Positions 1 to 18,138 of a DNA stretch of 18,138 nucleotides are shown here, piece after piece (the first letter of the stretch is position 1; each line of letters begins with the position of its first letter). Both the position numbers and the translations under genes were made by a program. The DNA comes from Spirulina sp. (GTDB lineage Bacteria > Cyanobacteriota > Cyanobacteriia > Phormidesmidales > Phormidesmidaceae). The stretch is from NCBI GenBank assembly GCA_044070495.1, contig JBIPSI010000054.1, positions 1-18,138 on the forward strand. Direction: 5' to 3'. The notes under the pieces are model-generated. The model saw nothing but the letters and a program-made list of their open reading frames with translations, had not been told where the DNA came from and did not search any database.

Positions 1-1
1 A

Positions 2-100
2 GCCTATATCTTTTTCAGCTTGCGTCGTTTTGTCGAGCAGCGGGCCAGCATAGGTGCGGTTCGCCTCCTCCACTGAGTGCCCCATCAGCTCAGCAGCGGC
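2..100 (-). pseudogene. Possible C-terminal remnant of a tyrosine recombinase/integrase
   Basis: Minus-strand translation AAAELMGHSVEEANRTYAGPLLDK resembles the integrase box II motif (LMGH...Y). It is immediately preceded by an in-frame TAA (101-103), so there is no intact upstream ORF, and it is adjacent to a tRNA att-like fragment. Confidence 0.4.
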
Positions 101-122
101 TTAATGAGAATTTCAGATTCTC

Positions 123-170
123 AAAAGCATTGATGCGCAAGAGCTAGAACCCTTGCGCATCAATGCTTTT
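123..170. terminator. Perfect 19-bp inverted repeat; likely bidirectional terminator downstream of the tRNA 3' end
   Basis: AAAAGCATTGATGCGCAAG (123-141) and CTTGCGCATCAATGCTTTT (152-170) with a 10-nt loop and A/T runs at both ends, 6 nt from the tRNA fragment. Confidence 0.75.
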
Positions 171-176
171 ACAATA

Positions 177-220
177 TGGGCGATACTGGATTCGAACCAG
201 TGACCCCTTCCGTGTGAAGG
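177..220 (-). tRNA. 3' half of tRNA-Val(CAC), truncated; probable att site of an integrated element
   Basis: Minus strand reads CC-TTCACAC-GGAAG-GGGTC-ACTGG-TTCGAAT-CCAGT-ATCGCCC-A: anticodon loop CAC (216-214), T-arm and acceptor 3' strand. No D-arm or acceptor 5' strand is present upstream, and the 5' anticodon stem is incomplete. Confidence 0.85.
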
Positions 221-346
221 GTGTAATCAAGCACCTTAAATCCTTTGAGTATCAGGGCTTTGAGAATTGCCAATAAATCGTATCTCAATGGCTTATCACA
301 ATCCACAAAGCTTTACTGACGGACAGAGCAAGGGCGGTGAGAGGGT

Positions 347-1531
347 TTATCGACCTGGCGAAATTTGGTTTCGCGTCTGAGGCTCTGGATGCCCCTGACT
401 GTGTTGCTCAACGAAGTCGAGAATATGGCGATTAGCGTCTTCAGTGTGGATTGGGATTGGCAGTGCCTCTAAGCCAGTGGCGTCGTAGCTAGCCAGTAAC
501 CAGTCGCCCTTTTTGAATTTGAAGGTTTGGCGGAACATATCTTCCGAAATACCAAAGGCTTCAGCAATTGCCCGTCGGTCATATTCTCGGGGCAGTTTTG
601 ACACAAAGTAGGTGTGGGGCTGGGCTAGGGTGTTGACGTCTAGGTTGGCGATCCGCTGGGTGGAGATGCCGATGCCCAGACCAAACTTACGGCCCCGACG
701 GGCTAGGGTCATGACTGCGGCTTTGGAGTGTTTTTGGCTATCGCTGCTGCTCTTGCCGGGAATGAACTCGTCGGCCTCATCGAAGATGAAGGAGACCAGA
801 GGGGTAATCTGGCCGGTGCGACGGCGGGACTCGTAGGCGACGTGGGCCAGTTTGGCGGCGAAGTCGCGCAGGTCATCGGGGTTGTGGGATTGGACAATGA
901 TCAGGCTGCTCTGGCTGTCATCGTTGAGCCACTCGACGATTTGGGGAATGGAGACAGTGACGCTGGGGGGGATGTCAATGTGGGACTGCTGGGCCTGGGC
1001 TTTGAGCCCATGGATGACCGTATCCAGATTAGTCTGAGCGGTGGCGGTAATGGATTTTTTTGCCTTTTTGTTGGCAGGGTCTTCGTTGTAGTCGTCGATG
1101 AAGGCTTCGATCTGGATGCGGGGGCCGGTGTTGTTCGGAGAAAAGGCGACTTCAACGACCTCCAGATTGGTAGGGACAGCGATACAGCGGATTTTGGTGG
1201 TGTCTTCGGTGGAGAGGGTATCTTGGGTGATCCAATCTTTCCCGGCATTGCGGGCGGCCTCGGTGATAAAGCCGGGGTAGCCGCCGGTGTCGGTACCGAG
1301 GGCGTAGTGCATGGGCAGGATGCCAGTCACTTCGAGGATGCTGTAGCGAGTCTGCTGCTGGTCGCTGGCAAAGTTGGGCACCGCCAGCATCGCTCCCTCA
1401 GCGATGGTGTTCATGGCCTGGCGGGTGTAGTCGAACCAGAGTTCGTAGCGGTAGCGAGTCACTTCGTTCTCTTCAATTTTCATGAGAATGCCGCTTAGGT
1501 CACGGACAAACATGGTGGACCTCAAGGTCAA
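347..1531 (-). CDS. HerA/FtsK-like ATPase, apparently internally deleted (no Walker A)
   Basis: C-terminal FIFDEADEF (Walker B), ARRGRKFGLGIGISTQR and N-terminal barrel-like region; overlaps the upstream NurA-like gene by 4 bp. No GxxGxGK[ST] motif precedes Walker B. Alternative ATG start at 1513. Confidence 0.75.
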   Translation of the reverse strand: MTLRSTMFVRDLSGILMKIEENEVTRYRYELWFDYTRQAMNTIAEGAMLAVPNFASDQQQTRYSILEVTGILPMHYALGTDTGGYPGFITEAARNAGKDWITQDTLSTEDTTKIRCIAVPTNLEVVEVAFSPNNTGPRIQIEAFIDDYNEDPANKKAKKSITATAQTNLDTVIHGLKAQAQQSHIDIPPSVTVSIPQIVEWLNDDSQSSLIIVQSHNPDDLRDFAAKLAHVAYESRRRTGQITPLVSFIFDEADEFIPGKSSSDSQKHSKAAVMTLARRGRKFGLGIGISTQRIANLDVNTLAQPHTYFVSKLPREYDRRAIAEAFGISEDMFRQTFKFKKGDWLLASYDATGLEALPIPIHTEDANRHILDFVEQHSQGHPEPQTRNQISPGR

Positions 1532-3402
1532 GATCGGTGGAAGGAGTCACGGATGGCGCGAAAGGTGCGGCTCAAGGGTTGAGATCGGAAGGAGTAGGCG
1601 GACGACCGAACGATTCCCTGGATGCGCTTGCCCACAGTCTTTGCACCCCAGTCAGCCTTATGCAGCGGATCGGGATAGCCAATCACCTCCGGGAAGTGGT
1701 TACGGGTGAGAACGCTCAGCAAGTACATATTGATGAACTGGGCTAAATTGGTCTCCTCGTTGGTGCGATAGCAGAGGGGCTGAATGCGCCCTAGGGCGTT
1801 GGTTTCGATCACCACTTGGTCAAGTCCGGGCTGATCCCACTCGGGGTAAATAAGTCGGTCAATAAAGACAACATGCCCCATCAGAGGGGTGGCCTTATCT
1901 CGCTTCAGGAAAAATTGGGCCAGTGATCGCGCAAACAGCCGCTCCGGAGCCACGATGAACCCCTGCACCCCTGAAACTTCCGGGCTACCGTCGGCCCTCG
2001 CCCTCGCGTGGAGGGTCATGTAGGTAGAGTCGAACTCAATGGAGGTCCAGGGGGCAGTGAGGGTTTCGTCGGCCAGGGGGAGCAGTTCGAGGAAGATGCG
2101 ATCCGTCCAGGGCAGTTGGCGCACGTCTAAGTCGGCCAGGGTTGGGTATCCCTGCTCGCCGAGCTGCTTCATGACGCCCAGATAGTTGCGGGTGAGGTAG
2201 CGGGAAGCGGAGTCTTTGATGATGCCGGTGAGCAAAATTTTGCGACTCCAGCAGACTTCGATCAGGGCGCGGATGCCAACGGCAATCAGAAAGCCCACGT
2301 CATTGGGCGACATCCAGCGCTGGCAAACGACTCCGTACTCGTCGGGGGCTTCGTAGACGAGGGCTTGCTGATCTTTTTCGAGAAAGAGGCGGCGGCAAAT
2401 GTGCTCGAAGAGAGCCACGCAGTAGTCCCAGGAAGCCCCACAGTTGACGTCGGTGGTGAGGATGGTACGGCCCTGGTGAGTTTCGAGGTGGGCGAAGGGA
2501 GGGAGGGGATCTTGCCCTCGGCGGCGAGCTTTGGTGAGGTAGCGAATGGCCCCTTGCAGGTCATCGGTGGTGAGGTGGTGGCGAGCGGCAAAGTCGTCGA
2601 GATTGAGGGTCTGGGTGCGCTGATGATGGAACTCGGCAATCAGAGCCATGTACTGGCTGAACTTTTTGGTGGTGGGAATACCGAGAGACGGGTTGAAGGG
2701 GTGGGCCAAGGCCACGGTGACATCATCGACGGTGAGGCGACGACGGTCGAAGGGGAAGTTGAGCATGGGAATGGCCTCGGGCTGGATAGCCACGCTGGCC
2801 AGAATGCTGGAGGGAGATCGGTCTAGGAGGATGACTTTGGGCGCTTCAAGGGCTGATGAAGTGGCGACGTTGTAGGCGAGGTAGATTTCGGCCAGCTCCA
2901 TCATTTTGGTGTCGATGCTGGAGAGGTCTACTCGCTCACTATCGGAGACCAGAAAGGTTTCGGGACGGTCTTGGTCTACGACGTCAGCAAATTCGGAGAA
3001 GGGAACGGGGATGTAGGTGACCATGGAGACGTCCTTTTCCAGCGACCACTTCTGGTAGCGGACGGTGGGTGGATCGTCGTCGAGGTTGATTTGGCCTTTG
3101 GCCCCATAGGCGCAGGCAGAAAAGACGATGAAGTCTTGGAAAGGATCTTTGCCGCAGGTGCCATCGATGGCCACAAAGTCGAGCTGGCGGCTACCAAAGA
3201 AGCGTTCGATATAGCGATGGAGAGACCGAAGGGAGGCCGGATCAGCAAAGTGGGGCTGGAGGGGACAGATCAGACGGTGGAAGAAAGTTTGATAGAAGTC
3301 GCTGGCGTTGCGGGCGCGACTCGTATAGAGCGTATCGAACTTGTCTCGGGAGAAGTCGAGAGCTTTGCCGTAACTGCTGTAGATTTGGGAAATATCAGAC
3401 AT
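1528..3402 (-). CDS. NurA-family (RNase H-fold) nuclease
   Basis: Motifs FVAIDGT, ILLDRS, GIIKDS and C-terminal GYPDPLHKAD typical of NurA; paired with a HerA-like gene. Confidence 0.8.
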   Translation of the reverse strand: MSDISQIYSSYGKALDFSRDKFDTLYTSRARNASDFYQTFFHRLICPLQPHFADPASLRSLHRYIERFFGSRQLDFVAIDGTCGKDPFQDFIVFSACAYGAKGQINLDDDPPTVRYQKWSLEKDVSMVTYIPVPFSEFADVVDQDRPETFLVSDSERVDLSSIDTKMMELAEIYLAYNVATSSALEAPKVILLDRSPSSILASVAIQPEAIPMLNFPFDRRRLTVDDVTVALAHPFNPSLGIPTTKKFSQYMALIAEFHHQRTQTLNLDDFAARHHLTTDDLQGAIRYLTKARRRGQDPLPPFAHLETHQGRTILTTDVNCGASWDYCVALFEHICRRLFLEKDQQALVYEAPDEYGVVCQRWMSPNDVGFLIAVGIRALIEVCWSRKILLTGIIKDSASRYLTRNYLGVMKQLGEQGYPTLADLDVRQLPWTDRIFLELLPLADETLTAPWTSIEFDSTYMTLHARARADGSPEVSGVQGFIVAPERLFARSLAQFFLKRDKATPLMGHVVFIDRLIYPEWDQPGLDQVVIETNALGRIQPLCYRTNEETNLAQFINMYLLSVLTRNHFPEVIGYPDPLHKADWGAKTVGKRIQGIVRSSAYSFRSQPLSRTFRAIRDSFHRS

Positions 3403-3576
3403 GGCTCAGGCTCAGCATCTGTCCGGGTACCTAAGGGTATTCTATGGCTGATGCCCCAGAGGAAAGATGCTGGGCGGTGCCCCGTAACATTCTTTTAGAG
3501 AAATTTGGATTCGGGTCGTTGGTGTGCCCTTAAGCTATGGAGGGAACCCTAGCGTTACCGAGAGCAATGGATAGCT

Positions 3577-3921
3577 ATGGATCGCACAATTGCAGAATTT
3601 AAGCTGGAAGACGGCAGCGACATCACCGTTCTGTTTGAGGTGCCGCCCCCCAGCACCGACAGCGCCCTAGAGGAGGTGAGCTTAAATGCGGGCAGGATGG
3701 TCTACCAGGCCACCCAAACCCTGGGGCAAGCCCTGGATCAGGTGCAGCCTGTGGCCAATGCCATCATTTCTCGGTTCAAGGCGGGGCTCACCACCCCAGC
3801 CGATGAGGTGGAGGTGAAATTTGGCCTTACCCTCAGTGCCGATGCGGGGGCGATCTTTACCGCCGTCGGGGGCGATGTGACCTTTGAAATTACCTTGAAA
3901 TGGGCAAAGGGCAGCGATTAG
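3577..3921 (+). CDS. Trypsin-co-occurring domain protein (Trypco1 / CU044_2847-like)
   Basis: 114 aa with DEVEVKFGLTLSADAGAIF...FEITLKW signature, 6 bp upstream of a trypsin-like protease. Confidence 0.75.
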   Translation: MDRTIAEFKLEDGSDITVLFEVPPPSTDSALEEVSLNAGRMVYQATQTLGQALDQVQPVANAIISRFKAGLTTPADEVEVKFGLTLSADAGAIFTAVGGDVTFEITLKWAKGSD

Positions 3922-3927
3922 GGACGT

Positions 3928-5082
3928 ATGACGCAACCCGTGACCGAAGCTCAGTATCTGGCGGCCATTGCCCGCATCTACCAGGGCAAGACGCCCATCG
4001 GCATTGCCTTTTGTGTGGCGGATGGTTATCTGCTGACCTGTGCTCATGTGGTGAGTAAGGCACTAGGGCATCAACGCAAGTCTTACCAAATTCCGGCCCA
4101 GGAGATGTTGGGGCAGAAGGTAGCTCTAGAGTTTTGTGGCGAGGGACAGGTGGAACGCCACCATGCCACCGTCGCTTACTGGCGCAGCCCAGCCCAGGAA
4201 GAACCGGGCACGACGGATGTGGATGTCGCCGTTCTCAAGCTTACGGAATCTATGCCTATCGGTGCTCGGGTGCTTAGCCTCACGAGTTTTCCGGAGTTGA
4301 AGGGACACACGTTTCTCGCATCGGGTATCCCGGAAAACGTTGCCGATGGCGCATGGTCTGAGGGAAAGATACAGGGGGCAACCCATAGCCGCGCCCTAGT
4401 ACAAATGGTGGCTGGCCCAGGCTATGCGATTGAACCGGGCTTCAGCGGTGCCCCAGTGTGGAGCCCATCCTTGGGGGATGCCATTGTGGGTATGGTGGTG
4501 GCCCGAGATAAGCAGCGAGAAGAGGAGAGAATTAGCTTTATGGTGCCAGCGGCGAGGCTTCAGCCAGCCTTGGCCGCCATTGGAATCGATATTTCAGCAG
4601 TTCAGTCGAGCTTACCTACTGCCATGCCTGCATCAGAACGGCTTCAACTCATTAACACGCTCAACAGTCTGCCTACGGTACAGTTTGAAACGTTGGTCAA
4701 CACTCTGAACCCACCTAGCGGCCTGATGCCCCCCAACAGTGCGCCCCAGGGGTTGCGTTCTTCGGCCTTATTGCAGTGGGTTGAAGGGCCAACGGGGCCA
4801 GGACTGAATGAATTGCAGGCAGGGCTACAGGCAATGGGGATTTCCACAACCGTCCAAGACTCTGTGCAACCAAACATAAACGGCATAAGCAAGACTTCAG
4901 AATCATCCAAAAAGGAGCGTCTTCGGAAAGAGATTCAATTATTGCAGGAACAACTAGAACGCTGTTTTGAAAAGCGCCTTTTGACGGACGATCCTGACCG
5001 TGAGGTCAAGCTAGAGAAGCTAGAGCAAGAACTGGAACAAAAAATAGCTGAGAAGCAGAGTGAGCTAGATGCCCTAGATTAA
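3928..5082 (+). CDS. Trypsin-like serine protease with two C-terminal helical adaptor (EAD-like) domains
   Basis: Catalytic triad motifs LTCAHVV, DVAVLKL and GFSGAPV. Helical domain at ~4636-4839 and a coiled-coil domain at 4909-5076 that recurs at the N-terminus of the next gene. Confidence 0.85.
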   Translation: MTQPVTEAQYLAAIARIYQGKTPIGIAFCVADGYLLTCAHVVSKALGHQRKSYQIPAQEMLGQKVALEFCGEGQVERHHATVAYWRSPAQEEPGTTDVDVAVLKLTESMPIGARVLSLTSFPELKGHTFLASGIPENVADGAWSEGKIQGATHSRALVQMVAGPGYAIEPGFSGAPVWSPSLGDAIVGMVVARDKQREEERISFMVPAARLQPALAAIGIDISAVQSSLPTAMPASERLQLINTLNSLPTVQFETLVNTLNPPSGLMPPNSAPQGLRSSALLQWVEGPTGPGLNELQAGLQAMGISTTVQDSVQPNINGISKTSESSKKERLRKEIQLLQEQLERCFEKRLLTDDPDREVKLEKLEQELEQKIAEKQSELDALD

Positions 5083-5123
5083 ATTTACTAACCCTTAAAC
5101 CATTCACATAAAGTCTAACAGCA

Positions 5124-6125
5124 GTGGACAAAAAAGAAAGGCTAGAGAAAGAAATTGAACAGCTCAAAGCAACGCTTGACAAGTGCTTTCAGAAGCGTCT
5201 GTTAAGTGATGATCCAGAAAAAGAAATTAAGCTTGAGGAACTGGAGGAAAGACTAGAGAGTCAGATTCGCGAAAAGGAGCGAAAATTATCCCATCTCTCA
5301 TCCTCATCCTCCAACCGAAACCGTGGCACCCTCACCCTAAAGGAAGAGCTTTGTTCTCTAGATTTTGATGAACCCAAGAAAGTTGTCCAGGACATCTTGA
5401 CATGCCTACACGAAAATGAAGGAGGCTCAGCTTTGCTTCTAGCGGAAAAATGCCTGGATATGGAAGGTGAACTCCTTCTAATTAAAATTCGAGATATTCT
5501 AAAATCAAACACAAGTCAGCTTATTGAATATCCTGTTCAGTTTATTCCTACAATGCCAGCCAATAGAATGGCTTTTCTCAAAACTATTGCTGGATATTTG
5601 GGTATTGATCTCCCTGTAACTGATGGGAATGAATCTGAGGATGAGTTGACCAAGGCTACTGAGAAGATTGTCGGAAAACTATCTGAGCGGTTGCGCTCTG
5701 GAACAACTATATTCATTCCAGTGGCAAACTGGAAAAGCTTAAGCTTAAGCTATCAATCTGTTTTTCTGGATTGGTTTATTTGTCAATTCTGGCAATCGCT
5801 AAATAGGTCGGTTTCGATGGCTATGAATGACTATTCTCCTAGGGTTTTCTGTATTATCATGGTCGATGAGTCGATGGCGGAAGCCTGTAAGAAAGCTGAT
5901 TACTTCTGTGATACGGCAGAATTTGACTGTAACAAGTTACTCATGCTGCCACTACGGTGCTGGACAAAGACAGATGTTCGACGTTGGCTCAGTAGCTATT
6001 CCTCAGAGATCAACAAGACAGAATGTAATCGATTGGTAGATTATATCTTTGGCAGCAAGGATGAGGAGTTGCCCTGGAAGGTTCGGGCTGAGCTTGAAAA
6101 AGCCCATGCGCAATCATGTTTTTGA
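5124..6125 (+). CDS. EAD-like N-terminal domain plus probable inactive STAND (iSTAND) NTPase-like protein
   Basis: GTG start. N-terminal 56 aa match the protease C-terminus. The remainder has LDF...LPLRCWTKTDVRRWL features and no intact Walker A, and lies directly upstream of MoxR and vWA genes. Confidence 0.6.
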   Translation: MDKKERLEKEIEQLKATLDKCFQKRLLSDDPEKEIKLEELEERLESQIREKERKLSHLSSSSSNRNRGTLTLKEELCSLDFDEPKKVVQDILTCLHENEGGSALLLAEKCLDMEGELLLIKIRDILKSNTSQLIEYPVQFIPTMPANRMAFLKTIAGYLGIDLPVTDGNESEDELTKATEKIVGKLSERLRSGTTIFIPVANWKSLSLSYQSVFLDWFICQFWQSLNRSVSMAMNDYSPRVFCIIMVDESMAEACKKADYFCDTAEFDCNKLLMLPLRCWTKTDVRRWLSSYSSEINKTECNRLVDYIFGSKDEELPWKVRAELEKAHAQSCF

Positions 6126-6142
6126 CGAACGATAGTAAACCC

Positions 6143-7114
6143 ATGAAATTCTTTACTGGTGCCCCCAATCATCGTGCTGCTAACCCTCACCCAGAGGCTC
6201 CGGAATGGGAGCCTTACCTGGCGACGGAGGAGTTGGTCAATGCGGTGAACCTCGCTATTTTTCTGGAGCGACCTCTTTTGCTGGAGGGCGAAGCGGGCTG
6301 TGGCAAAACGCGCCTTGCCTCGGCGGTAGCCTATGAGTTGGGTTATCCGCTCTATCGTTGGAACATTCGTTCTAAAACGCGCTATCAAGAAGGGCTATAC
6401 GAGTACGATGCCCTGCTGCGGCTCCATGATGTTAACTTGAGCCAAAAGCTGGACGGTGCAACGACCGAGGGAGACCGTTCCATCGATCCGAGGCGGGTAG
6501 AAAACTACCTTGATCTCAAGGAGCTAGGCAAAGCTTTTGAGCTAGAAGAATGCCCAGCGGTGGTGTTGATCGATGAAATTGACAAGGCGGACTTAGATTT
6601 TCCCAATGATTTGCTCACCGTCTTGGAAAAGCCCTACGAGTTTACGATTCGGGAAACAGGCAGGGTCGTCAGGGCACATCACCCGCCCATTGTGATCATC
6701 ACCAGCAACAAGGAGAAGGGCAATCTCCCAGCTCCATTTTTGCGGCGTTGTGTTTACCACTACATTGAATTTCCGAGCCGACCGGAGCAACTGAAGCGGT
6801 TGGCAGATCTACATTTTTCGCTCCCTGATTCGGCTACGGAGGCGGCTACGGTGGAGGGGCAACCTAGTCAGCCCCCTGAGGATTTGGTGGATGCGGCTAT
6901 CGACCGATTTTTGGCTATTCGGCAGCGCAAGGGGCTGGCCAAGCCCCCAGGCACCAGCGAATTTTTGGACTGGCTACGGGTGCTCGCCCACTATGGGCCA
7001 AAGGCTCCTTACCCAGCTCAAGATTTGCCAGAGGATGGGCCATTGCCCTACCGGGAGTTGCTGTTCAAACTCCGGGGTGATTGGCGACAGGCGGGGTTCA
7101 GTGCATCGCCATGA
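6143..7114 (+). CDS. MoxR-family AAA+ ATPase
   Basis: RPLLLEGEAGCGKT (Walker A), VLIDEIDKAD (Walker B), IITSN, LPAPFLRRC. Alternative start at 6116. Confidence 0.92.
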   Translation: MKFFTGAPNHRAANPHPEAPEWEPYLATEELVNAVNLAIFLERPLLLEGEAGCGKTRLASAVAYELGYPLYRWNIRSKTRYQEGLYEYDALLRLHDVNLSQKLDGATTEGDRSIDPRRVENYLDLKELGKAFELEECPAVVLIDEIDKADLDFPNDLLTVLEKPYEFTIRETGRVVRAHHPPIVIITSNKEKGNLPAPFLRRCVYHYIEFPSRPEQLKRLADLHFSLPDSATEAATVEGQPSQPPEDLVDAAIDRFLAIRQRKGLAKPPGTSEFLDWLRVLAHYGPKAPYPAQDLPEDGPLPYRELLFKLRGDWRQAGFSASP

Positions 7115-8226
7115 GGGTAAGTGGGGTAGACGGTGAAGGGTTGGTGCTGGAAACGTTCTTGCAGTTGCGCAAGAGCGGATTCAACCTGGGCCTGGATGAG
7201 TACTTTGCCGGGTTAGCCCTGGTGACTGGGGAAGAGACACCGTTTGCCCAAAATCTAGACACCCTGAAGCGGTCGCTCAAGGCGGTGTGGTGTACGTCCC
7301 CATCGGAGCAGAGGCAGTTTGATCCAGACTGGGACAAGGCCCTGGCCATCGTACAAGCGGCCACCCTAGACACTACGGAGACAGTAGATGCCCCTGAGTC
7401 CTCTTCTTCTCGGTCATCGGTCGAACCGTTCCCATTTACCCCGGCAAGGTTTGAGCAAACCCAGCTAGAGACTAAGGCCGAAAAATCGACCCCTCCGGCC
7501 TTGGATGCGGTGTCTCAGCCAGTGCGTGCGCCGTTTACCCCGGTGGAACTGGAGCGTCCTTCGGAACTGCGGAGCTACTGGCCTGTTACCCGGCGATTTA
7601 TGAGCTATAGCTGGCGCTATCTGCGGCGCACCGTGGAGGCTGGCCCAGCGGAACAGTTGGATGTAGAAGCCACCGTGCAACAGGTGGCGCAGCAAGGATT
7701 TTACCTAGAGCCTGTGCTGCGGCAAGGCGACCAAAACCGAGCACAACTGCTGCTGTTGATTGACCAAAATGGATCTATGATGCCGCTGCATCCCTTTTCT
7801 CGTGCCGTAGCCGAAACGGCGCTTTACAACAGTGGCTTGCCACCAGGGCAGGTGTCTGTGTATTACTTTCAAAACGTTCCGGCAGACGATGTGTATTACG
7901 ACGTGTTTTTGACCCAACCCGTGGAACTCAAGGCGGTGCTGGCAGCCTGTGATGCCGATACCAGTGTTGTTGTGGTTAGCGATGCCGGGGCGGCACGGGG
8001 CTATCGGCGGCTAGAACGCATTCGCGCCACGGTGCGGTTTTTGGCCCACCTGCGCCGCACGACCCAACGCTGTGCTTGGCTAAACCCCATGCCCACCGAG
8101 CGGTGGGTAGGCAGCTCAGCGGAAATGATTGCCAATTTGGTGCCGATGTTTCAGATGGATCAGGATGGGTTGAGCCATGCGATTGATGTGGTGCGGGGGC
8201 TGCTGGTTCAGCCCATTCAGCCATGA
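7111..8226 (+). CDS. vWA (CoxE-like) domain protein, MoxR partner
   Basis: ATG at 7111 overlaps the MoxR stop (ATGA). MIDAS-like LIDQNGSM, VVSDAGAARG and WLNPMP motifs. Confidence 0.85.
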   Translation: MRVSGVDGEGLVLETFLQLRKSGFNLGLDEYFAGLALVTGEETPFAQNLDTLKRSLKAVWCTSPSEQRQFDPDWDKALAIVQAATLDTTETVDAPESSSSRSSVEPFPFTPARFEQTQLETKAEKSTPPALDAVSQPVRAPFTPVELERPSELRSYWPVTRRFMSYSWRYLRRTVEAGPAEQLDVEATVQQVAQQGFYLEPVLRQGDQNRAQLLLLIDQNGSMMPLHPFSRAVAETALYNSGLPPGQVSVYYFQNVPADDVYYDVFLTQPVELKAVLAACDADTSVVVVSDAGAARGYRRLERIRATVRFLAHLRRTTQRCAWLNPMPTERWVGSSAEMIANLVPMFQMDQDGLSHAIDVVRGLLVQPIQP

Positions 8227-10094
8227 CCACCCTGCTCACCCTAGAACAACGCCAGGAGCGGGCCGAGCGTCAGATCCGTCGCTTTGTGGCCCGGTTCGAG
8301 CCTGCCTACTACGATCTGGTTTGCCATGCGGCCCTACCCTTGGTGCTTACCCCAGAACTGGTGAGCTATCTCCGCAATGAGTTTTTGCCGGGGGTGCCCT
8401 GGATTGCCGAAGTCGATCTGCTGCTGTCCGATCTGTGCGCTCCTGTGGGCTACGAACGCTACGTGATGGATGCTGAGGTGCGGGCCTATGCGCTGGCCGA
8501 TCCTGCGGCTCCCCTTTCTGCCGAGCGCAAACGAGGGGTGGCCAACCTACTGGTTAGCTATGTGCGCTACCTGGCCGAGCACCAATCCTATTTAAGCCCT
8601 CGCGACCTAGAAGCCCAGCAGTGGGCCGCCATGCTCTACCTAGGAGAAACGGAACGCCAAACCGTTGTGTCTGAACTGGTGGAGCGGTTCCAAGTGGCGA
8701 CAGCGGGAGGATCGCTGGTGGGGGCCAACCTGCTAGGCAGTGCCGAACTAGCCCGTTTGGCCCAACTGGTGCAAACGCTCAAACTGCCCCTGGCCGACTA
8801 CCCCGAACTGATCGAATACGCTGCCCTCGTCAGCGATGTGCAACGAAGCAACCTGCCCCTAGCCCCCAACCGAGTTGAAAAAACCTATGTGGTGGCCCCT
8901 GGGCAATTTCTGTGTTTGCCTGAAGCCCTAAAAACAGACCTGAGGGCCAGAGGCCGCATTCAGGATTCGGAGCCGTCCTTACCCGTAGGCGACGGGGCAA
9001 ACGCTCAAAATACCCCTCAGACATCACACATCAGTGCTGTTGAGACCTCGGATATTTCCTTATCTACCCTGGCCGAAAACTTCCCAGAACTCAAAACCCT
9101 TGAATTTGAATATCCGCTCATTGACTTTGAGCCAGACCCTAGCCCAGACCAAACCGAAGACAACACCCCTACCCTACAAACCTTCAGCTTTGAAACCGTG
9201 CGGGTTAACAACCGGGGCAAGGTGATCGAAAAGACTCAAGCTACAGCTCGCTACTTCTCTGAATCGTTGTCTAATCAGAATGGCACCTGGCTGAGACAAG
9301 TTACAAAGCGCTTATTAGGCCAAGATAGATTGCTCACCCTCGATATGGTGCTCATTCCCGGTGGCACCTTTATGATGGGTTCTCCTGACGATGAACCCGA
9401 ACGCTTCGACAGAGAAGGCCCCCAGCACGAGGTGACGGTGCCCCCGTTCTTTATGGCCAAAACCCTCATCACCCAGGCCCAGTGGCGGGCGGTAGCCCAC
9501 CAGCTCGACCCGGTAGATCGAGAGCTAGACCCAGACCCGTCCAGCTTCAAAGGCGATGACCGTCCGGTGGAGAACGTCTCTTGGCATGATGCCACAGAGT
9601 TCTGTGCCCGCCTGTCGTGCCTCACCGGGCGCGACTATCGCCTACCCACGGAAGCGGAGTGGGAATATGCCTGCCGAGCTGGCACCACTACTCCCTTTGC
9701 ATTTGGTGAAACCCTCACCGCAGACTTGGCCAACTACGATGCCTCGGTTACCTATGCAGAAGGAGTAAAAGGGGAGTATCGCCGGGAAACCACCCCAGTC
9801 GGCAGCTTCCCGCCCAATGCCTTTGGCTTGTACGACATGCACGGCAACGTCTGGGAATGGTGCCAAGACCACTGGCACGACAACTACCAAGGTGCCCCTA
9901 CCGATGGCAGCGCATGGTTATTCTCTGACGAGAGAAAAGACAAGAATGATCCTCGTCGCGTGTTGCGGGGTGGTTCCTGGCTCTTCAACCCGAGGAATGG
10001 CCGCTCTGCCTGTCGCAACAACCGCCATCCGGACGCTCGCACCTACAACTACGGTTTTCGTGTTGTTTGTTCTGCCGCCAGGGCTCTTCAGTAG
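8223..10094 (+). CDS. DGR target protein 1: N-terminal helical domain, linker and C-terminal FGE-sulfatase (CLec-fold) domain carrying VR1
   Basis: ATGA overlap with the vWA stop. FGE motifs [36 protein letters not shown] and RGGSW...GFRVV. Last 44 codons align with TR. Confidence 0.92.
   Translation: MTTLLTLEQRQERAERQIRRFVARFEPAYYDLVCHAALPLVLTPELVSYLRNEFLPGVPWIAEVDLLLSDLCAPVGYERYVMDAEVRAYALADPAAPLSAERKRGVANLLVSYVRYLAEHQSYLSPRDLEAQQWAAMLYLGETERQTVVSELVERFQVATAGGSLVGANLLGSAELARLAQLVQTLKLPLADYPELIEYAALVSDVQRSNLPLAPNRVEKTYVVAPGQFLCLPEALKTDLRARGRIQDSEPSLPVGDGANAQNTPQTSHISAVETSDISLSTLAENFPELKTLEFEYPLIDFEPDPSPDQTEDNTPTLQTFSFETVRVNNRGKVIEKTQATARYFSESLSNQNGTWLRQVTKRLLGQDRLLTLDMVLIPGGTFMMGSPDDEPERFDREGPQHEVTVPPFFMAKTLITQAQWRAVAHQLDPVDRELDPDPSSFKGDDRPVENVSWHDATEFCARLSCLTGRDYRLPTEAEWEYACRAGTTTPFAFGETLTADLANYDASVTYAEGVKGEYRRETTPVGSFPPNAFGLYDMHGNVWEWCQDHWHDNYQGAPTDGSAWLFSDERKDKNDPRRVLRGGSWLFNPRNGRSACRNNRHPDARTYNYGFRVVCSAARALQ
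9960..10091 (+). repeat. DGR variable repeat VR1 (including 3' IMH)
   Basis: Aligns ungapped to TR 11836-11967. Over the first 120 nt there are 11 mismatches at TR adenines and 1 at a TR T (9999). Two further differences lie in the 3' IMH-type end (AGG vs AGC, CAG vs CTG). Confidence 0.95.
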
Positions 10095-10166
10095 CCCTTT
10101 TCTCTATAGTACTCTTGCACTCTTCTCTTTCTTCTTTTCTCTCTTCCCTCGGCGCGTAGCGCCTCA
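10092..10166 (+). promoter_or_regulatory. Post-VR1 conserved tail: pyrimidine tract plus GGCGC-GTA-GCGCC hairpin (10151-10163); putative DGR target-recognition element
   Basis: Near-identical copy after VR2 and absent after TR. Confidence 0.75.
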
Positions 10167-10344
10167 ATTTTTTTTCATTTTTGAGTTCCGTAGGGTGAAT
10201 TCGCGGCCCTCAACCCCACACCACCAACCCCCAATCCCCAGGCCGCAATGCACCATCCACCACATTTGGTATTTTTTGTGATCTTTTTTGCTTTGGCTTC
10301 CAACTCATGGCATGGTTGGCTTCATTGAAACACCCCATTGCCCC

Positions 10345-10725
10345 ATGGCCGAGTTGCCCATCATTCAAAAAACTTATGATCTGATTAAGTGGTACGTGCC
10401 CATTCTCAATCGGCTCCCCCGCGACCACAAATTTCTGCTGGGCGACAGAATCACCACGGGTCTTTACGACCTCCTCGAAAACCTCATCCAGGCCCGCTAC
10501 GAAACCGATAAACTGCCCCGTCTCACTGCACTCAACAGCAAGCTCGACATTTTGCGCCACCAAACTCGTCTGCTGCTAGATTTTGACTTGGTGGCCGATC
10601 ACCGCTACGAATATGTCAGCAATTTGCTAAACAGTATCGGCACCGATCTCGGAGGCTGGATCAAACAACAGCAGCAGCGTCACCGGGTGATCACCGCTCG
10701 GCAGCGGGCCTTGGCTCAGTCGTAG
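10345..10725 (+). CDS. avd: DGR accessory variability determinant (Avd, four-helix bundle)
   Basis: 126 aa [36 protein letters not shown]...[10 protein letters not shown], typical Avd, immediately upstream of the RT. ATG 10345 preferred over TTG 10288. Confidence 0.92.
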
Positions 10726-10755
10726 TCTAAAAACTTTGTCTAAAAAAGTTGTCCC

Positions 10756-11814
10756 ATGAAACGTTACGGCAACCTCTGGCCTGCCATTGTCGAGTTTTCT
10801 AACCTACTCCTGGCCGCCCGCAAGGCCCAAAAGGGCAAGCGCTTTCGCCCCAATGTGCTCGACTTTAACTACCACCTAGAATCCGAATTGTTAACCCTAC
10901 AAACGGAGCTAGATCACCAAACCTACACACCGGGCCAATATCGCACCTTTGAGATCAAAGAACCCAAGCCACGCCTCATCTCCGCCGCCCCCTACCGGGA
11001 TCGGGTGGTTCACCATGCGCTGTGCAACGTGATTGTGCCGATCCTTGAGCCATCCCTCATCCACGACACCTACGCCAACCGAGAAGGCAAGGGCACCCAC
11101 AAAGCCCTCCAACGCTTTACCCGCTATGCCCGATCTAGCCAGTACGTCTTGCAGGGCGATATTCAAAAATACTTTCCCAGCATCGATCACGCCATCCTCA
11201 AGGCCCGCCTGCGCCGCAAAATCAAATGCCCCCGCACCCTTTGGCTGATCGATACCATCATCGATGCCAGCAACGACCAAATTCCAGCCGCCTTCCACTT
11301 TGCCGACGACGACCTACTCACGCCCCTAAGCCGTCGTCGGGGTTTACCCATCGGCAACCTCACTAGCCAGTTCTTTGCCAATGTCTACCTCAGCGGCTTC
11401 GACCATTTTGTGAAAGAAGCCCTTGGGGCCAAAAAGTACCTCCGCTATGTAGACGACTTTGCCCTATTTTCAGACGATTACCGCTTCCTAGCCCAGGCCC
11501 GTCAAGCCATCGAAGCCCACCTCGACACCCTACGGCTTAAAATTCATCCAATCAAAAGCCACATCACCAAAACGCAGCAGGGTTCAAACTTCCTAGGGTT
11601 TCGCGTTTTCCCAGACCGCATCCGCGTACGCACCGAAAACCTATGCCGTGCCCGTCGCCGCTGCCGAGCCCTCCAGGTGGCCTATGCCACGGGTCATACC
11701 GATCTGGCTGGCGTGATTCAACGGCTCCAAAGCTGGGAAGCCCACCTCAAACATGGCGATACCCACCACCTCCGCCGACAGATATTCGACTCGCTTGTAT
11801 TCTCAAGGAGTTGA
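10756..11814 (+). CDS. DGR reverse transcriptase
   Basis: 352 aa with [53 protein letters not shown] and FLGFR. No maturase or endonuclease extension; flanked by avd and TR. Confidence 0.95.
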
Positions 11815-11835
11815 AGAAGGGGTAGGCACCTCCGG

Positions 11836-11967
11836 ATGTTGCGGGGTGGTTCCTGGATCAACAACCCGAGGAATTGCCGCTCTGCCTATCGCAACAACAA
11901 CAATCCGGACGCTCGCAACAACAACAACGGTTTTCGTGTTGTTTGTTCTGCCGCCAGCGCTCTTCTG
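11836..11967 (+). repeat. DGR template repeat TR (including IMH*)
   Basis: Non-coding, AAC-rich copy of both VRs, starting 22 nt after the RT stop. 27 adenines in the first 120 nt, including 11 AAY codons in the VR frame. Confidence 0.95.
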
Positions 11968-12120
11968 CATCAGAACTGGCCAATGGGAATTGACCGGGTG
12001 CATCAGGGAAGAGTCCAGACCTGCTCCTGCAATGCTGGTGACAGCATTCAAAGATAAACCGGGTTGGTCAGCTTGGTAGGTTCGCCGAAGAGTTGCCCAG
12101 CCCTCCCCTGACCCGTAGGG
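11968..12120 (+). ncRNA. Putative DGR RNA spacer 3' of TR
   Basis: Intergenic segment following TR that contains a perfect hairpin AATGCTG-GTGA-CAGCATT (12031-12048). In characterised DGRs the sequence 3' of TR is part of the template RNA. Boundaries uncertain. Confidence 0.45.
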
Positions 12121-12156
12121 CTAAACTTGAGGCAGACCTCCTTAGCTTTGAGTGCT

Positions 12157-12967
<811 letters not shown>

Positions 12968-12988
12968 TGTCAAACATAGCCCTAACCC

Positions 12989-13843
12989 ATGGCCCAACTC
13001 ACCCTTACCTACCACAAGGCCACAGCCCGATATTTCACCGAAGACCTCGGTAACAGTATCGGCCTCGATATGGTGCTGATTCCCGACGGCACCTTTTTGA
13101 TGGGTTCGCCCGAAGACGAGCTAGAACGCACTGACGCTGAAGGCCCACAACACGAGGTCACGGTGCCCACCTTCTTCATGGGCAGATTCCCCATCACCCA
13201 GGCCCAGTGGCGAGCCGTGGCCCAGTTAGAGCAGGTAGATCAAAAGCTAGACCCTGATCCATCCCGATTCAAAGGCGACAACCGCCCAGTGGAGCAAGTT
13301 TCCTGGTACGACGCTACGGAGTTTTGCGCCCGCCTGTCACAACTTACCGGACGAGACTATCGCTTGCCCAGCGAAGCCGAATGGGAATACGCTTGCCGAG
13401 CCGGAACCACCACCCCATTTCACTTTGGCGAAACCATCACAACAGACTTAGCCAATTACCGAGGGGTAGACGATGACAGTTTTAACTGGAAGGGTAACTA
13501 CGGCCAAGGCCCCAAGGGCATTTACCGCAAAGAAACAACCGAGGTAGGGAGCTTTCCTCCCAATGCCTTTGGGCTACAGGATATGCACGGCAACGTGTGG
13601 GAATGGTGCCAAGACCACTGGCACAGCAACTATGAAGGCGACCCGCCGACCGATGGCAGCGCATGGTTATTTTCTGCCGAGAGAAAAAGCAAGGATGATA
13701 TTTCTTGCGTGTTGCGGGGTGGTTCCTGGCTCTTCTTCCCGTGGAATTGCCGCTCTGCCTATCGCCTCAACAACAATCCGGACGCTCGCTACCACAACGG
13801 CGGTTTTCGTGTTGTTTGTTCTGCCGCCAGGGCTCTTCTGTAG
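12989..13843 (+). CDS. DGR target protein 2: stand-alone FGE-sulfatase (CLec-fold) domain carrying VR2
   Basis: Paralogue of the target 1 C-terminal domain ([27 protein letters not shown]); ends in VR2. Confidence 0.93.
13709..13840 (+). repeat. DGR variable repeat VR2 (including 3' IMH)
   Basis: Ungapped alignment to TR: 13 mismatches in the first 120 nt, all at TR adenines, plus AGG vs TR AGC at the 3' end (shared with VR1). Confidence 0.95.
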
Positions 13844-13914
13844 CCCTTTATCTATAGTACTCTTGCACTATACCCTTTCTTCTTTTCTCTCTTCCCTCGG
13901 CGCGAAGCGCCTCA
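13841..13914 (+). promoter_or_regulatory. Post-VR2 conserved tail: pyrimidine tract plus GGCGC-GAA-GCGCC hairpin (13899-13911)
   Basis: Near-identical to 10092-10166; stem identical and loop GAA instead of GTA. Confidence 0.75.
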
Positions 13915-14083
13915 AAATTTTTTGGTGCCCAAAGCCTTGGCCTCGCCAGCATAATCCTTGGGGCTAAACTGCAAACATATCCCTATCAGCCTTGAAGGCA
14001 ATGACCTAGACCAACGTTGTCAGCCTTACCCAAGCCCGTCAGTTGGCCTTTCCGCTCGCAGTCCTTGCCTGTGAGTCGTTAGA

Positions 14084-14497
14084 TTAGGTCGGTGTCGGTG
14101 GGGGAGGGATAAGTTTGGTGGCAGAGGCCGCTAATTTGAGGGCGATGGCTTTTTGGTCTTCCTTGGTGGTTGGCCATCCTTCAACGTCAGCATGGTTCGG
14201 GTTGTCTGGAAAGGGTTGGGCCGTCACGCGCAGGGAATCGATTAAGCAATCGCGAGTTAGAACGTCTGATCGACCGTAGAGGGTGCGTTGCTGTTGAGTC
14301 GCGACGTTGACCCCGGCCTGCCAAATTTCCGCCGCCGTCGCATCACGATGACGGGTGACAGAAAGCTCTTGGTAGGGATGGGGAATAAACAGGTTGGGCT
14401 TTACGGAGAAATCGCTCCGAAAATGCCCTTTCTGCATCACGTAACGGGCGAGCAGCTCGGTTTCGTCAACGGGGGGGATATTGTCTGGATCCAGCAT
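14084..14497 (-). CDS. Hypothetical protein, possible ADP-ribosyltransferase-like fold
   Basis: 137 aa with LARY...F...ELSVTR...NPNHADV pattern; third gene of a compact operon. Confidence 0.5.
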   Translation of the reverse strand: MLDPDNIPPVDETELLARYVMQKGHFRSDFSVKPNLFIPHPYQELSVTRHRDATAAEIWQAGVNVATQQQRTLYGRSDVLTRDCLIDSLRVTAQPFPDNPNHADVEGWPTTKEDQKAIALKLAASATKLIPPPPTPT

Positions 14498-14503
14498 GAA
14501 CCC

Positions 14504-14968
14504 TTAATGTTTAGCTAAAGCGACTTCTTGAATCAGGCTGAGCAACCGTCTTGGAATTGTCCCTAGAAAGGGCTCAGAGCCCCGTGGATCGCTATTGCCC
14601 AAAAGAGCCGCGTAGTAGAGCACACCGTCAGGGCTAATGCTCACTGAAATTGTCCAGTGAGGATCGCGATACCACTCAAGGGTTAAGTGACCGTCGGGTT
14701 CTGCCCCTACGGAGGGCAGGGGAAACCCCAGCGGTAGCGCCTGAATCACAGCATAGGTGTAATTTAGCGTTGATTCCTCTACCGGAAAAGCATCATAGCC
14801 GTCCCAGTTGGAGGTTTTACACTCGGCCCAGAGAGTGACGAGATCGTCAATGGCGGGCTGCTTGCTAAGGGCAGCGGTGTGGGCAAAGTACTGCTGATTA
14901 TTGCGGCTAACCTGGTCGATATAGGCAGCGGTAGGGCTAACCCCTCTGGGCAATAGGGTCGTGGTCAT
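14504..14968 (-). CDS. Hypothetical protein (NWDGYDA...DGHLTLEW type)
   Basis: 154-aa ORF overlapping the upstream gene by 4 bp and ending 6 bp before the downstream gene. Confidence 0.7.
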   Translation of the reverse strand: MTTTLLPRGVSPTAAYIDQVSRNNQQYFAHTAALSKQPAIDDLVTLWAECKTSNWDGYDAFPVEESTLNYTYAVIQALPLGFPLPSVGAEPDGHLTLEWYRDPHWTISVSISPDGVLYYAALLGNSDPRGSEPFLGTIPRRLLSLIQEVALAKH

Positions 14969-15753
14969 GGCGTGGCTCCAAAGCGTTCAAGGGCGTGGGG
15001 GGTCATGCAGCTAAAGAAGACTTTATTTTTAAGCCAGCGCATTTCCTGGAGTCGTCGAACTAGGGTATCTTGATCCAATTGAATCAACTCGTGGGTAAAA
15101 ACGTCGATATCCACAATTAAGGCACGGCCATCGGCAGGTTCTGCGCCAGCGGGTTGAATGGTTCTGACCCAGTTGATCACGTAGGGATAGCCGGGGACTG
15201 GGTAGGTATCTTGGTGAAAGAAGGACTCGGTGGCAAGGGCTAAGCCCGATGGTGGGGCGGGGACGGTACTGAGATAACTGGAGGGTGGCTCGCCAGTTTC
15301 TAGGGGAATGCGGTTGATGTAGCGCACCCCTAAGCGTTGAATGATGGTTGGGTCTGCCAGTTCTAAGAAAATACGCCAGAACCGTAGGGCCTCGGATTGA
15401 AAACCGCTCCACTCTTCGTAGGGTTCTAACCGACTAAAGGCAACCCCGTTGAGGGTAAACTGGGCCACATGGCGATTTTGGGCATCCTGAAGACGAAAAC
15501 CACTCCACTGCATCCGCTGCAAGATCTCTGGAGCACTATCCGGTTCCCCAGTAGCCACAACTTGAACATCATGCTGAATCTGAAGGATGGGGTAATCGGG
15601 CAACCGCCGAGTTAGCTCCGCTTTCAGGGCTTCTTCCTCTAGCTTTTTGCCTGCATGGGCCTGCCAATGGATCACCGCCTCAATGCTGGGGGCGGCTTTC
15701 AGAGTAGGAAATCTCTCATTCAGGTCAATGCTGAACTTGGGCAGCGGACTCAT
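14965..15753 (-). CDS. TIGR04255-family protein
   Basis: APSIEAVI, YEEWSGF, RLGVRYINRI and IVDIDVF motifs as recalled for this family. Confidence 0.75.
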   Translation of the reverse strand: MSPLPKFSIDLNERFPTLKAAPSIEAVIHWQAHAGKKLEEEALKAELTRRLPDYPILQIQHDVQVVATGEPDSAPEILQRMQWSGFRLQDAQNRHVAQFTLNGVAFSRLEPYEEWSGFQSEALRFWRIFLELADPTIIQRLGVRYINRIPLETGEPPSSYLSTVPAPPSGLALATESFFHQDTYPVPGYPYVINWVRTIQPAGAEPADGRALIVDIDVFTHELIQLDQDTLVRRLQEMRWLKNKVFFSCMTPHALERFGATP

Positions 15754-15915
15754 AGTAATCGCTAGGGTTCTGAGGGTGATTATATCGATCAGTGTTGATC
15801 CCTGAATAGTGAGTGCGCTGGGGGATTATGGTGGCTGATGCCTCGAAGCCGCACAGTGAGCGACGCCCAACACCCGTCCCATGACCTTAACTCTGCGCCG
15901 CCATCCCCCCAAAGG

Positions 15916-16521
15916 TCATGCCCCTGGCGGCAAAATCTCTGAAAGGGACAACAACACATCTGAAAACGCCAGGGGCGAAATCTGGTTTGGCTCGGTCAGG
16001 ATGAGGTGCTGGGTGTAGCCCGTTGCCGTGGGTGCGCGGAAGAGATGAATTTGGCGATGTTTGAGATCTAGCACCCAATAATCGGCAATACCCGCCTGGG
16101 CATAGAGCTTGGCTTTTACCTCGCAATCCTGCCGCAAGGTCGAATCAGCCACCTCCACCACGAGATACACCTGCTCCGGGCGGGGATGCTTCTCGGCGTA
16201 GTCGAGGATGGTGCCTTGCACAACAGCCACATCCGGCTCCGGCTCCGAGAAATCGTCCAGTTGGATGGGGTCTTGAGTCCGCACTAGGGCACGTTCTCCC
16301 AACCGAACCCGCAACGCATGGGCCAGCAGATGCAGCGCTGTAACGTGGGGCGTGCCTTTAGGAGCCATTAGGGTAATCTGTCCGGCCAAAAGTTCGGTGT
16401 GTTCGTCGGCGTTAAAGAGGCCGAGTTCCCCCATGCGGTGGTAGTCTTGCACCGTCCATCGCTTAAGTTGGCTCGGCTCCAGGGCAAGGGGCCAATGGGA
16501 AAGAGTGCTTGATGCCGTCAT
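15916..16521 (-). CDS. Uma2/DUF820 family putative endonuclease
   Basis: RWTVQDYHRM, SEPEPDVAVV, LVVEVADSTL..D...KAKLYAQAGIADYWVLDL. Confidence 0.9.
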   Translation of the reverse strand: MTASSTLSHWPLALEPSQLKRWTVQDYHRMGELGLFNADEHTELLAGQITLMAPKGTPHVTALHLLAHALRVRLGERALVRTQDPIQLDDFSEPEPDVAVVQGTILDYAEKHPRPEQVYLVVEVADSTLRQDCEVKAKLYAQAGIADYWVLDLKHRQIHLFRAPTATGYTQHLILTEPNQISPLAFSDVLLSLSEILPPGA

Positions 16522-16682
16522 GGCTCTCCATGGTTGGGGCCAACAAACCCCTCAGTTACAGGATAGTGTACCCAAGAGTAGCCCATGGGGGAATCAGCAA
16601 TTTTAGGAACAATTGTCGGTAGTACATTACTCTACGGATCAGAGAAAAAACACTCAAAAACAGCAATCTACGAGCTTCTACA

Positions 16683-17657: not shown

Positions 17658-17730
17658 CGTAGGGATGTGATGGCTTGAATGCACTGATTATATCGCCTGT
17701 GCAAAAAACGTAAACTTTATGACTTACTCC

Positions 17731-17937
17731 TCAACGCCCATCGAACTCTATGGGGGAATCATCACCCCTCACGATTTTCTGAGCCTTTGTCCTCGGCCCC
17801 TGTCCTCCGTCCTCCATCGCCGCCAAGTAAGCACCCGCTAACTTTCCCCAGTCCAGCCCAGCCTCCACATCACAGCCAGCGTCCTCCTCAATCTGGGCCA
17901 TTTCCCGCCACTCCTCCGGGCTAATCTCAAACGGCAT
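17731..17937 (-). CDS. Small acidic hypothetical protein
   Basis: MPFEISPEEWREMAQIEEDAGCDVEAG..., preceded by a strong AGGAGG Shine-Dalgarno on the minus strand (~17944-17949). Real start is probably 17937 or 17940, not 18045. Confidence 0.55.
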   Translation of the reverse strand: MPFEISPEEWREMAQIEEDAGCDVEAGLDWGKLAGAYLAAMEDGGQGPRTKAQKIVRGDDSPIEFDGR

Positions 17938-18022
17938 CACCTTCCTCCTTTCTCTCTGCCATCCCAACCCGGCTTCCCTCAGACAACTGCGATAATAAAC
18001 GCAAACCCTCTCTGGCATTGCC

Positions 18023-18138
18023 ATGGCAAAAATCACCCTCGACATCCCAGACGAGCTGCTCGACCAACTCTCCGAGCTAGGCCAACCTATCGCAGACTGG
18101 CTACCCCAGCAGTTGCCCAGCCTGCTTACCCAAGGCCG
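18023..18138 (+). CDS. Partial small protein (ribbon-helix-helix/antitoxin-like N-terminus), runs off the window
   Basis: MAKITLDIPDELLDQLSELGQPIADWLPQQLPSLL; open to the window end. Confidence 0.5.
   Translation, partial: MAKITLDIPDELLDQLSELGQPIADWLPQQLPSLLTQG

Follow-up and report, generated by a model that had tools for sequence, protein, structure and literature searches.

An 18,138-nucleotide (nt) stretch of Spirulina sp. DNA (contig JBIPSI010000054.1 of assembly GCA_044070495.1, positions 1 to 18,138 of the forward strand; hereafter the window) encodes a trypsin-like serine protease and, directly downstream, an iSTAND protein. Both proteins carry the same 56-residue helical module, at the C-terminus of the first and at the N-terminus of the second. 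Our favoured explanation, to which we give a probability of about 70%, is that the two copies are cognate adaptor halves that tether the protease to the iSTAND core, and that the module is a diverged lineage of the effector-associated domain EAD9 (PF19962). Effector-associated domains (EADs) are described, in the sections of Kaur et al. (eLife 2020, PMC7159879) that deal with them, as small non-enzymatic terminal modules found once on a core component and once on an effector or signalling protein, usually the product of an adjacent gene. In those sections they are proposed to couple core and effector by homotypic contact, EAD9 serving mainly to recruit signalling components (Kaur, Burroughs, Iyer & Aravind, eLife 2020, PMC7159879).

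The translations of nt 4909-5076 and 5130-5297 are identical at 32 of 56 residues without a gap. An earlier note on this DNA, made from the letters alone, had quoted exactly these peptides and counted the same figure by hand; in a single BLASTP comparison of the two copies, we obtained 57% identity and 82% positives (E 4e-12). The Smith-Waterman score of the real pair was 173, and it was attained neither by 2000 plain shuffles (mean 42.8, maximum 84) nor by 2000 heptad-preserving ones (mean 46.7, maximum 82). Generic coiled-coil composition, which the note had named as one of two findings that would overturn its claim, is therefore no explanation for the match. The two DNA segments are the same at 94 of 168 bases, with 33/56, 44/56 and 17/56 agreements at codon positions 1, 2 and 3, respectively; such a deficit at third relative to second positions indicates an old duplication kept by selection on the protein, rather than recent copying of the DNA. 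When a profile built from 10 family members was run against the 5.3-Mb genome from which the window comes, it recognised these two places only (E 1e-28 and 5e-27), the next match being at E 0.5. The note had also called the two proteins a protease and an iSTAND protein, and Pfam agreed on both (Trypsin_2 and PF19995) while adding Trypco1, MoxR and vWA to the neighbourhood. Its description of the module as a duplicated effector-associated domain is borne out by the layout: the module is small, all-helical and terminal, with one copy on the iSTAND protein and one on the enzyme encoded by the adjacent gene.

To see how far the module is distributed, word-indexed searches with the module only were combined with an exhaustive HMMER search over 1.84 billion cluster representatives. 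The latter returned 10 clusters at E<=0.001, of which 8 also passed E<=1e-10; two weak representatives (P0018 and P0019, E 1e-4 and 1e-3) were discarded as unrelated repeat proteins. Among 185,579 species, each represented by one genome, two loci were found besides the window's own genome. One of them (L040) has the gene order of the window, i.e. Trypco1-trypsin-iSTAND-MoxR-vWA; the other (L041) is from Leptothoe spongobia. Three true loci (L098, L099 and L100) were found in metagenomes; in each, the effector-side copy immediately precedes the iSTAND-side copy. A fourth candidate (L101), which matched in part, at 16 bits and in a GC-rich frame, was rejected as spurious. The sole match among viral contigs, in the antisense frame of a phage tail gene, was likewise spurious, which leaves that collection without a phage copy. 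In all, an adjacent effector-side copy lies directly upstream in five of the six loci with an iSTAND-side copy (the window, L040, L098, L099 and L100, the exception being L041), and the pairs sit upstream of MoxR and vWA.

Enzymes with the module at their C-terminus are Trypsin_2 proteins (window, P0007, P0013), Peptidase_C14 caspases (P0009, P0010), a TIR_2 protein (P0016) and a TIR+caspase protein (L100). The iSTAND proteins have it at their N-terminus: on PF19995, P0002-P0005 reach 29.5-48 bits, and two further iSTAND-type carriers, P0014 and P0017, stay under the cut-off with 19.5 and 21.1 bits. One 89-residue protein (P0015) consists of a low-complexity lead and the module only, and is either a fragment or an adaptor-only protein. 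Twenty columns are invariant across 10 module copies. Comparison of 10 effector-side with 7 iSTAND-side copies shows conservation on both sides at 26 of the 56 columns, and no residue common to the two sides at four (columns 11, 30, 37 and 51). The copies group by side, with same-side identities of 64-85% and 60-67% within the subfamily. All share the signature R-C-F-E-K-R-L-L-T-D-D-P, which is missing from the 47 EAD9 copies examined, and NCBIfam has no model for the module. A few Pfam matches were set aside as helical noise: Mu_Gam-Sipho_Gp157-TOTE (7 of 10 copies, best E 0.0019, far under the cut-off), CARD (E 0.016-0.05, 14-14.8 bits where 23.9 are required) and further models such as HSCB_C, OmpH and Prefoldin, all far under their cut-offs.

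An AlphaFold2 model of the window iSTAND protein (11-row alignment, mean predicted local distance difference test score, or pLDDT, 78.3) places two helices in the module, at residues 3-27 and 31-59, on either side of a three-residue turn (S28-D29-D30), with pLDDT of 69-88 over residues 1-60; the model is that of a small, all-alpha, non-enzymatic module. A low-confidence linker of 11 residues (60-70) leads to an alpha/beta body whose top Foldseek matches were the ZAR1 resistosome, Cdc6/Orc1, NRC2 and the Dark apoptosome, i.e. the STAND/AAA+ fold. We propose that each 56-residue copy forms a pair of helices with a tight S/T-D-D-P turn between them, and that the C-terminal copy of the protease packs against the N-terminal copy of the iSTAND protein. 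The helices would pack antiparallel and the two copies would form a helical bundle, which would tether the protease non-covalently to the iSTAND-MoxR-vWA core; docking would then recruit or activate the protease. Both halves would have changed together, giving rise to the shared R-C-F-E-K-R-L-L-T-D-D-P signature, and such a co-changed pair would be private to this system. A complex prediction with both modules supplied as alignments, made without control runs, gave ipSAE (interaction prediction score from aligned errors) values of 0.01 and 0.00 for a mark of 0.32, and has no bearing either way.

The relation to EAD9 was assessed with a reference set from the same class. Of 301 genomes, 38 had a match over the Pfam gathering cut-off of 25 bits; 30 loci were returned. 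When the family profile was aligned by hhalign to a profile of 24 EAD9 copies, the probability was 90.2% (E 1.5e-6), and the alignment ran through 57 columns without a gap and matched turn to turn; the probability was 87.9%, 87.5% and 78.7% for the set of 47 copies, the N-side set and the C-side set, respectively. None of the column shuffles (0/200 and 0/200) or heptad-preserving shuffles (0/150) reached the real score of 32.3 (their maximum was 20.7), and the reversed profile scored 17.5. The same register was obtained from hmmalign and from a MAFFT alignment of full-length iSTAND proteins. The likeness to EAD9 at the profile level extends over the entire domain and goes beyond coiled-coil composition. 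When the family hidden Markov model (HMM) was run over 38,149 six-frame segments, taken from the window's own genome and from the EAD9 loci, EAD9 domains made up 6 of the 22 best non-self matches (hypergeometric 1e-13), the best of them at 14.9 bits. One carrier, P0017, matched a broadened EAD9 HMM built here over its full length, at 17.7 bits. The mean identity of the window copies to EAD9 copies (20%) falls within the range found among true EAD9 copies themselves.

The history of the carriers points in the same direction. A maximum-likelihood tree was built from the last 265 residues of 40 iSTAND proteins, i.e. from the bodies without the module; five further rows were left out, since L043 has an internal stop, L027e duplicates L054, and OWN_C72, L069 and L049 are short. 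The seven module carriers form one clade, with a support of 100 in the Shimodaira-Hasegawa-like approximate likelihood ratio test (SH-aLRT). This clade lies inside a 14-row clade (SH-aLRT 100; inner 13-row clade 96) made of the carriers and seven EAD9-iSTANDs, and the iSTANDs with other N-termini are placed elsewhere. The most economical account is that an EAD9 kept its position on both partners and diverged there. Support in this tree is good though not final, since a quick search and midpoint rooting were used.

Several results weigh against this assignment, or against the docking proposal as a whole. No family member passes the Pfam EAD9 cut-off, the best reaching 12.5 bits; at E<=10, only 3 of 10 module copies match that model and, at E<=1, only 1 of 14 full-length homologues (P0017, 11.7 bits). 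With the EAD9 HMMs built here, the protease copy scored 3.5-3.7 bits, which ranked it 62nd and 69th among the matches in its own genome, and the iSTAND copy was unlisted: single sequences are not recognised as EAD9 against the genome background. The family profile retrieved no canonical EAD9 at E<=0.001 from the 1.84 billion representatives. The hhalign probability does not reach 95%, and profiles that resemble coiled coils readily produce false matches. A literature search on 'EAD9' returned no EAD9 experiment, and by title only Kaur 2020 was on the subject. Finally, no partner of the iSTAND copy was found anywhere in the Leptothoe spongobia assembly. There an IS-type DDE transposase (6294-7586, + strand) precedes the iSTAND gene (7671-8684, + strand), and the system may have decayed, the transposase standing where an effector gene would be expected.

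In a first alternative, the pair does dock but through an unrelated two-helix coil that displaced EAD9 at the same position, which would make the module analogous and not homologous to EAD9, i.e. an EAD without a name. The low Pfam EAD9 scores (10.6-12.5 bits against 25), those from our own HMMs and the lack of any link to canonical EAD9 among the representatives speak for this explanation, and modules at iSTAND N-termini are indeed swapped often, the tree requiring 12 changes among seven types. It does not, however, fit well with a full-length profile match of 88-90% that no shuffle comes near and whose register is reproduced by three methods, nor with the enrichment of EAD9 among the top family-HMM matches and the intermediate position of P0017. 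It must also contend with the nesting of the carriers in an otherwise all-EAD9 clade, and with locus L027, where the middle module that the window protease carries (see below) precedes a true EAD9. We hold displacement by an analogous coil to be unlikely, and the module to be most likely a strongly diverged EAD9 branch, overlooked by the Pfam model. Of the two identities that the earlier note had left side by side, EAD9-like or unnamed, the first is thus upheld by profile-profile comparison, layout and carrier phylogeny; in the Pfam comparison that it had suggested, the module remains under the threshold.

Two-helix modules of a related kind were met at other iSTAND N-termini. Those of L042, L044, L045, L047, L048, L052, L053 and L062 score 1-12 bits on our own EAD9 HMM, and such cyanobacterial modules reach about 22-24 bits on the Pfam model (G204 and G117). 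With N-terminal scores lying around the Pfam threshold, EAD9-like hairpins seem to form a continuum. A PF19962 scan of the genome from which the window comes gave nothing over the cut-off, i.e. no canonical EAD9.

How partners behave could be followed in the true EAD9 loci. Among the 30 loci, tail-to-head adjacent pairs are present in 15 and divergent pairs in two. The first copy stands at the end of a trypsin, TIR or caspase/CHAT protein; the second opens an iSTAND-like protein with MoxR behind it, or else a core protein of about 470 residues. In these 17 pairs, identity between partners is 31-71%, compared with a mean of 19-29% to non-partners. Among about 48 copies, the partner comes between 1st and 8th, and those placed above it are same-side copies from related genomes. 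The window copies are 58% identical to one another and on average 20% identical to the 47 EAD9 copies, which gives the partner rank 1 of 48. Joining of the same components in one chain is also found: 14 other cyanobacterial iSTAND proteins that were scanned include four Trypsin_2-iSTAND, one TIR-iSTAND, one CHAT-iSTAND, three caspase-iSTAND and one Trypsin-EAD9-iSTAND fusion. The enzymes that bear the module are those joined covalently to iSTAND in other genomes. At L071 (595-2325, + strand), a 577-residue polypeptide has the order Trypsin_2, EAD9 (67.9 bits), iSTAND, and is a fused form of the two-gene layout.

These data bear on a second alternative, in which each copy is a self-association coil, the protease and the iSTAND protein dimerise separately without docking onto one another, and the likeness of the copies reflects descent only. 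Helical hairpins often homodimerise, the docking role of EAD9 is itself a prediction, and the four columns without a shared residue mean that the two sides are not interchangeable. Separate dimerisation would leave without a reason that 26 of 56 columns are common to both sides in all carriers, that the genes are adjacent in five of six loci, that exactly the enzyme types with the module are fused to iSTAND elsewhere, and that partners change together in true EAD9 pairs; we consider it improbable. As for a functionless likeness, due to a chance match of charged coiled coils or to recent neutral duplication of DNA, E, K and L abound in both segments, which give weak Pfam noise matches to many coiled-coil families, but the failure of all 4000 shuffles, the presence of just two copies in the window's own genome, the 17/56 agreement at third against 44/56 at second codon positions, and the conservation of both sides in relatives from other assemblies leave it next to no room.

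If cognate docking through a diverged EAD9 is accepted, a wider and much more tentative proposal can be made: that EAD9-type hairpins are a natural set of orthogonal docking pairs, with the RCFEKRLL-TDDP lineage fully insulated from canonical EAD9. Each cognate pair would change together around the turn and the helix faces, and the four columns without a common residue would mark an interface that is directional and heterotypic rather than strictly homotypic. Partner identity does exceed non-partner identity in all 17 EAD9 pairs and in the window pair. Should the proposal be true, docking specificity could be read from co-diverged pairs, and these could be reused as compact heterodimerisation tags; we regard full insulation as possible, although doubtful.

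Set beside described systems, the window module has most in common with EAD9: an all-helical module of about 60 residues with a central turn, C-terminal on an enzyme and N-terminal on the core protein of the next gene, partner copies that change together, a full-length profile match, and carriers that nest among EAD9-iSTANDs. It differs in that every member tested is under the Pfam cut-off, in its own signature and in the very small size of the family. Of the features by which EADs are characterised in the relevant sections of Kaur et al. 2020, terminal position, copies on core and effector, adjacent genes, and a partner closer than the EAD9 copies elsewhere are found, and homotypic docking of the two copies is predicted. 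The gene order (signalling peptidase, iSTAND, MoxR, vWA) and the coupling of peptidase to iSTAND by an EAD correspond to the iSTAND-MoxR-vWA ternary systems as those sections, and the parts of Kaur et al. 2021 (PMC8195603) on such systems, present them. Here, unlike there, the FGE-sulfatase arm is encoded by its own gene behind vWA and is the target of a diversity-generating retroelement (DGR); a separately encoded vWA-L arm is reported for a minority of iSTAND systems in the same parts of Kaur et al. 2021 (PMC8195603). Enzyme-iSTAND fusions with trypsin, caspase, CHAT or TIR use the same enzymes and scaffold, with a covalent junction where the window has a hairpin pair; the predicted non-covalent link, split over two genes, might in principle be open to regulation or exchange. 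Death-fold adaptors (CARD/Death, bDLD1-3), as treated in the corresponding part of Kaur et al. 2021 (PMC8195603), likewise place matching small helical modules on scaffold and effector, but with six helices in the Death fold against two in the window module.

The module is best filed as a rare diverged EAD9 branch in a known type of system. With 56 residues on each side, private to its operon and without a further genomic copy, the pair offers a compact test case for the predicted 'EAD principle', by which signalling enzymes would be coupled to bacterial immune scaffolds through small modules that match. Since the Pfam EAD9 model misses diverged branches, surveys that rely on Pfam will label such iSTAND systems 'adaptor-less'. 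Beyond that, the pair adds a member to a described class and leaves the overall picture unchanged.

The features of the window are collected in Table 1. The tandem + strand genes from 3577 to 10094 (Trypco1, protease, iSTAND, MoxR, vWA and 623-residue protein) abut or overlap, the start of the MoxR gene and the end of the iSTAND gene sharing 10 nt, and iSTAND, MoxR AAA+ and vWA genes stand together in one operon, as in an iSTAND ternary system. Trypco1 is the customary small partner of a trypsin-like peptidase. The protease shows, by eye in the translation, the motifs TCAHV, DVAVL and GFSGAP; the effector-side copy belongs to its final 58 residues. The iSTAND gene starts with GTG, in agreement with the MDK/RRERL starts of its homologues, and its product scored 23.9 bits on PF19995 in one scan, just under the cut-off of 24, and 24.6 in another, just over it. 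A second iSTAND match was found in the same genome (G000:C72:4556-4909, - strand; 34.7 bits).

Table 1. Features of the window discussed in the text, with their coordinates (nt), strand and supporting matches
Feature	Position	Strand	Match or remark
Trypco1 protein, 114 aa	3577..3921	+	PF19493, 79.3 bits, E 3e-22; NCBIfam CU044_2847 family
Trypsin-like serine protease, 384 aa, with two adaptor modules	3928..5082	+	PF13365 Trypsin_2, residues 27-184, E 3e-10
Middle helical module of protease, residues 231-302	4618..4833	+	multi-copy, adaptor-like
Effector-side copy of the 56-aa two-helix module, protease C-terminus	4909..5076	+	Pfam EAD9 profile positions 4-62 of 62, 10.6-12.5 bits
iSTAND protein, 333 aa: N-terminal module, disordered linker (residues 60-70), inactive STAND P-loop-like body	5124..6125	+	PF19995
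Core-side copy of the 56-aa module, iSTAND N-terminus (residues 3-58)	5130..5297	+	
MoxR-type AAA+ ATPase	6116..7114	+	PF00004/PF07728
vWA-domain protein	7081..8226	+	PF05762 VWA_CoxE, E 6e-11
623-aa protein, C-terminal FGE-sulfatase (C-type-lectin-fold) domain	8223..10094	+	PF03781, 216 bits
DGR variable repeat (VR), 3' end of FGE-sulfatase gene	9961..10089	+	129-nt direct repeat, 91% identical to 11837-11965
bAvd accessory protein	10288..10725	+	PF22296, 70.8 bits
DGR reverse transcriptase	10756..11814	+	PF00078, 80.8 bits
DGR template repeat (TR)	11837..11965	+	129-nt repeat, template copy

The operon ends in the lectin-fold arm. The mismatches between the variable and template repeats lie mostly at adenines of the template copy, and the DGR is predicted to diversify the C-terminal FGE-sulfatase lectin-fold domain of the 623-residue protein, which is likely to be a diversified sensor or effector arm; the N-terminal part of that protein (about 370 residues) gave no Pfam match. 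The FGE-sulfatase and DGR gene set is also present downstream of iSTAND in Leptothoe. DGR-diversified C-type-lectin sensors in MoxR-vWA systems of multicellular bacteria, cyanobacteria included, are described in the part of Dore et al. (PNAS 2024, PMC10907252) that concerns such sensors.

The protease carries another module between its catalytic domain and the C-terminal copy. This middle module (about 65 residues, helical) occurs at 12 places in the window's own genome (loci L073-L093), at the N- or C-termini of NB-ARC-TPR (2), NACHT (2), TRADD-N-pentapeptide, CHASE2, CHAT and Clp_N proteins. It had no Pfam match at E<=10 and no NCBIfam match; its nearest Atlas clusters were EAD7/EAD1-like (score 0.95, a lead only), and it may represent an uncatalogued EAD of the EAD1/EAD7 group. 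The protease appears to be wired twice, privately to the iSTAND protein and, via the multi-copy module, to a wider network.

Upstream of the operon, on the opposite strand, lie two genes of another kind. One (347-1531, - strand) encodes a HerA-like ATPase, matching the NCBIfam anti-phage HerA model at E 5e-9, far under its cut-off; the other (1528-3402, - strand) encodes a 624-residue protein that is weakly NurA-like (Pfam E 0.007). They may constitute a separate defence pair beside the ternary system.

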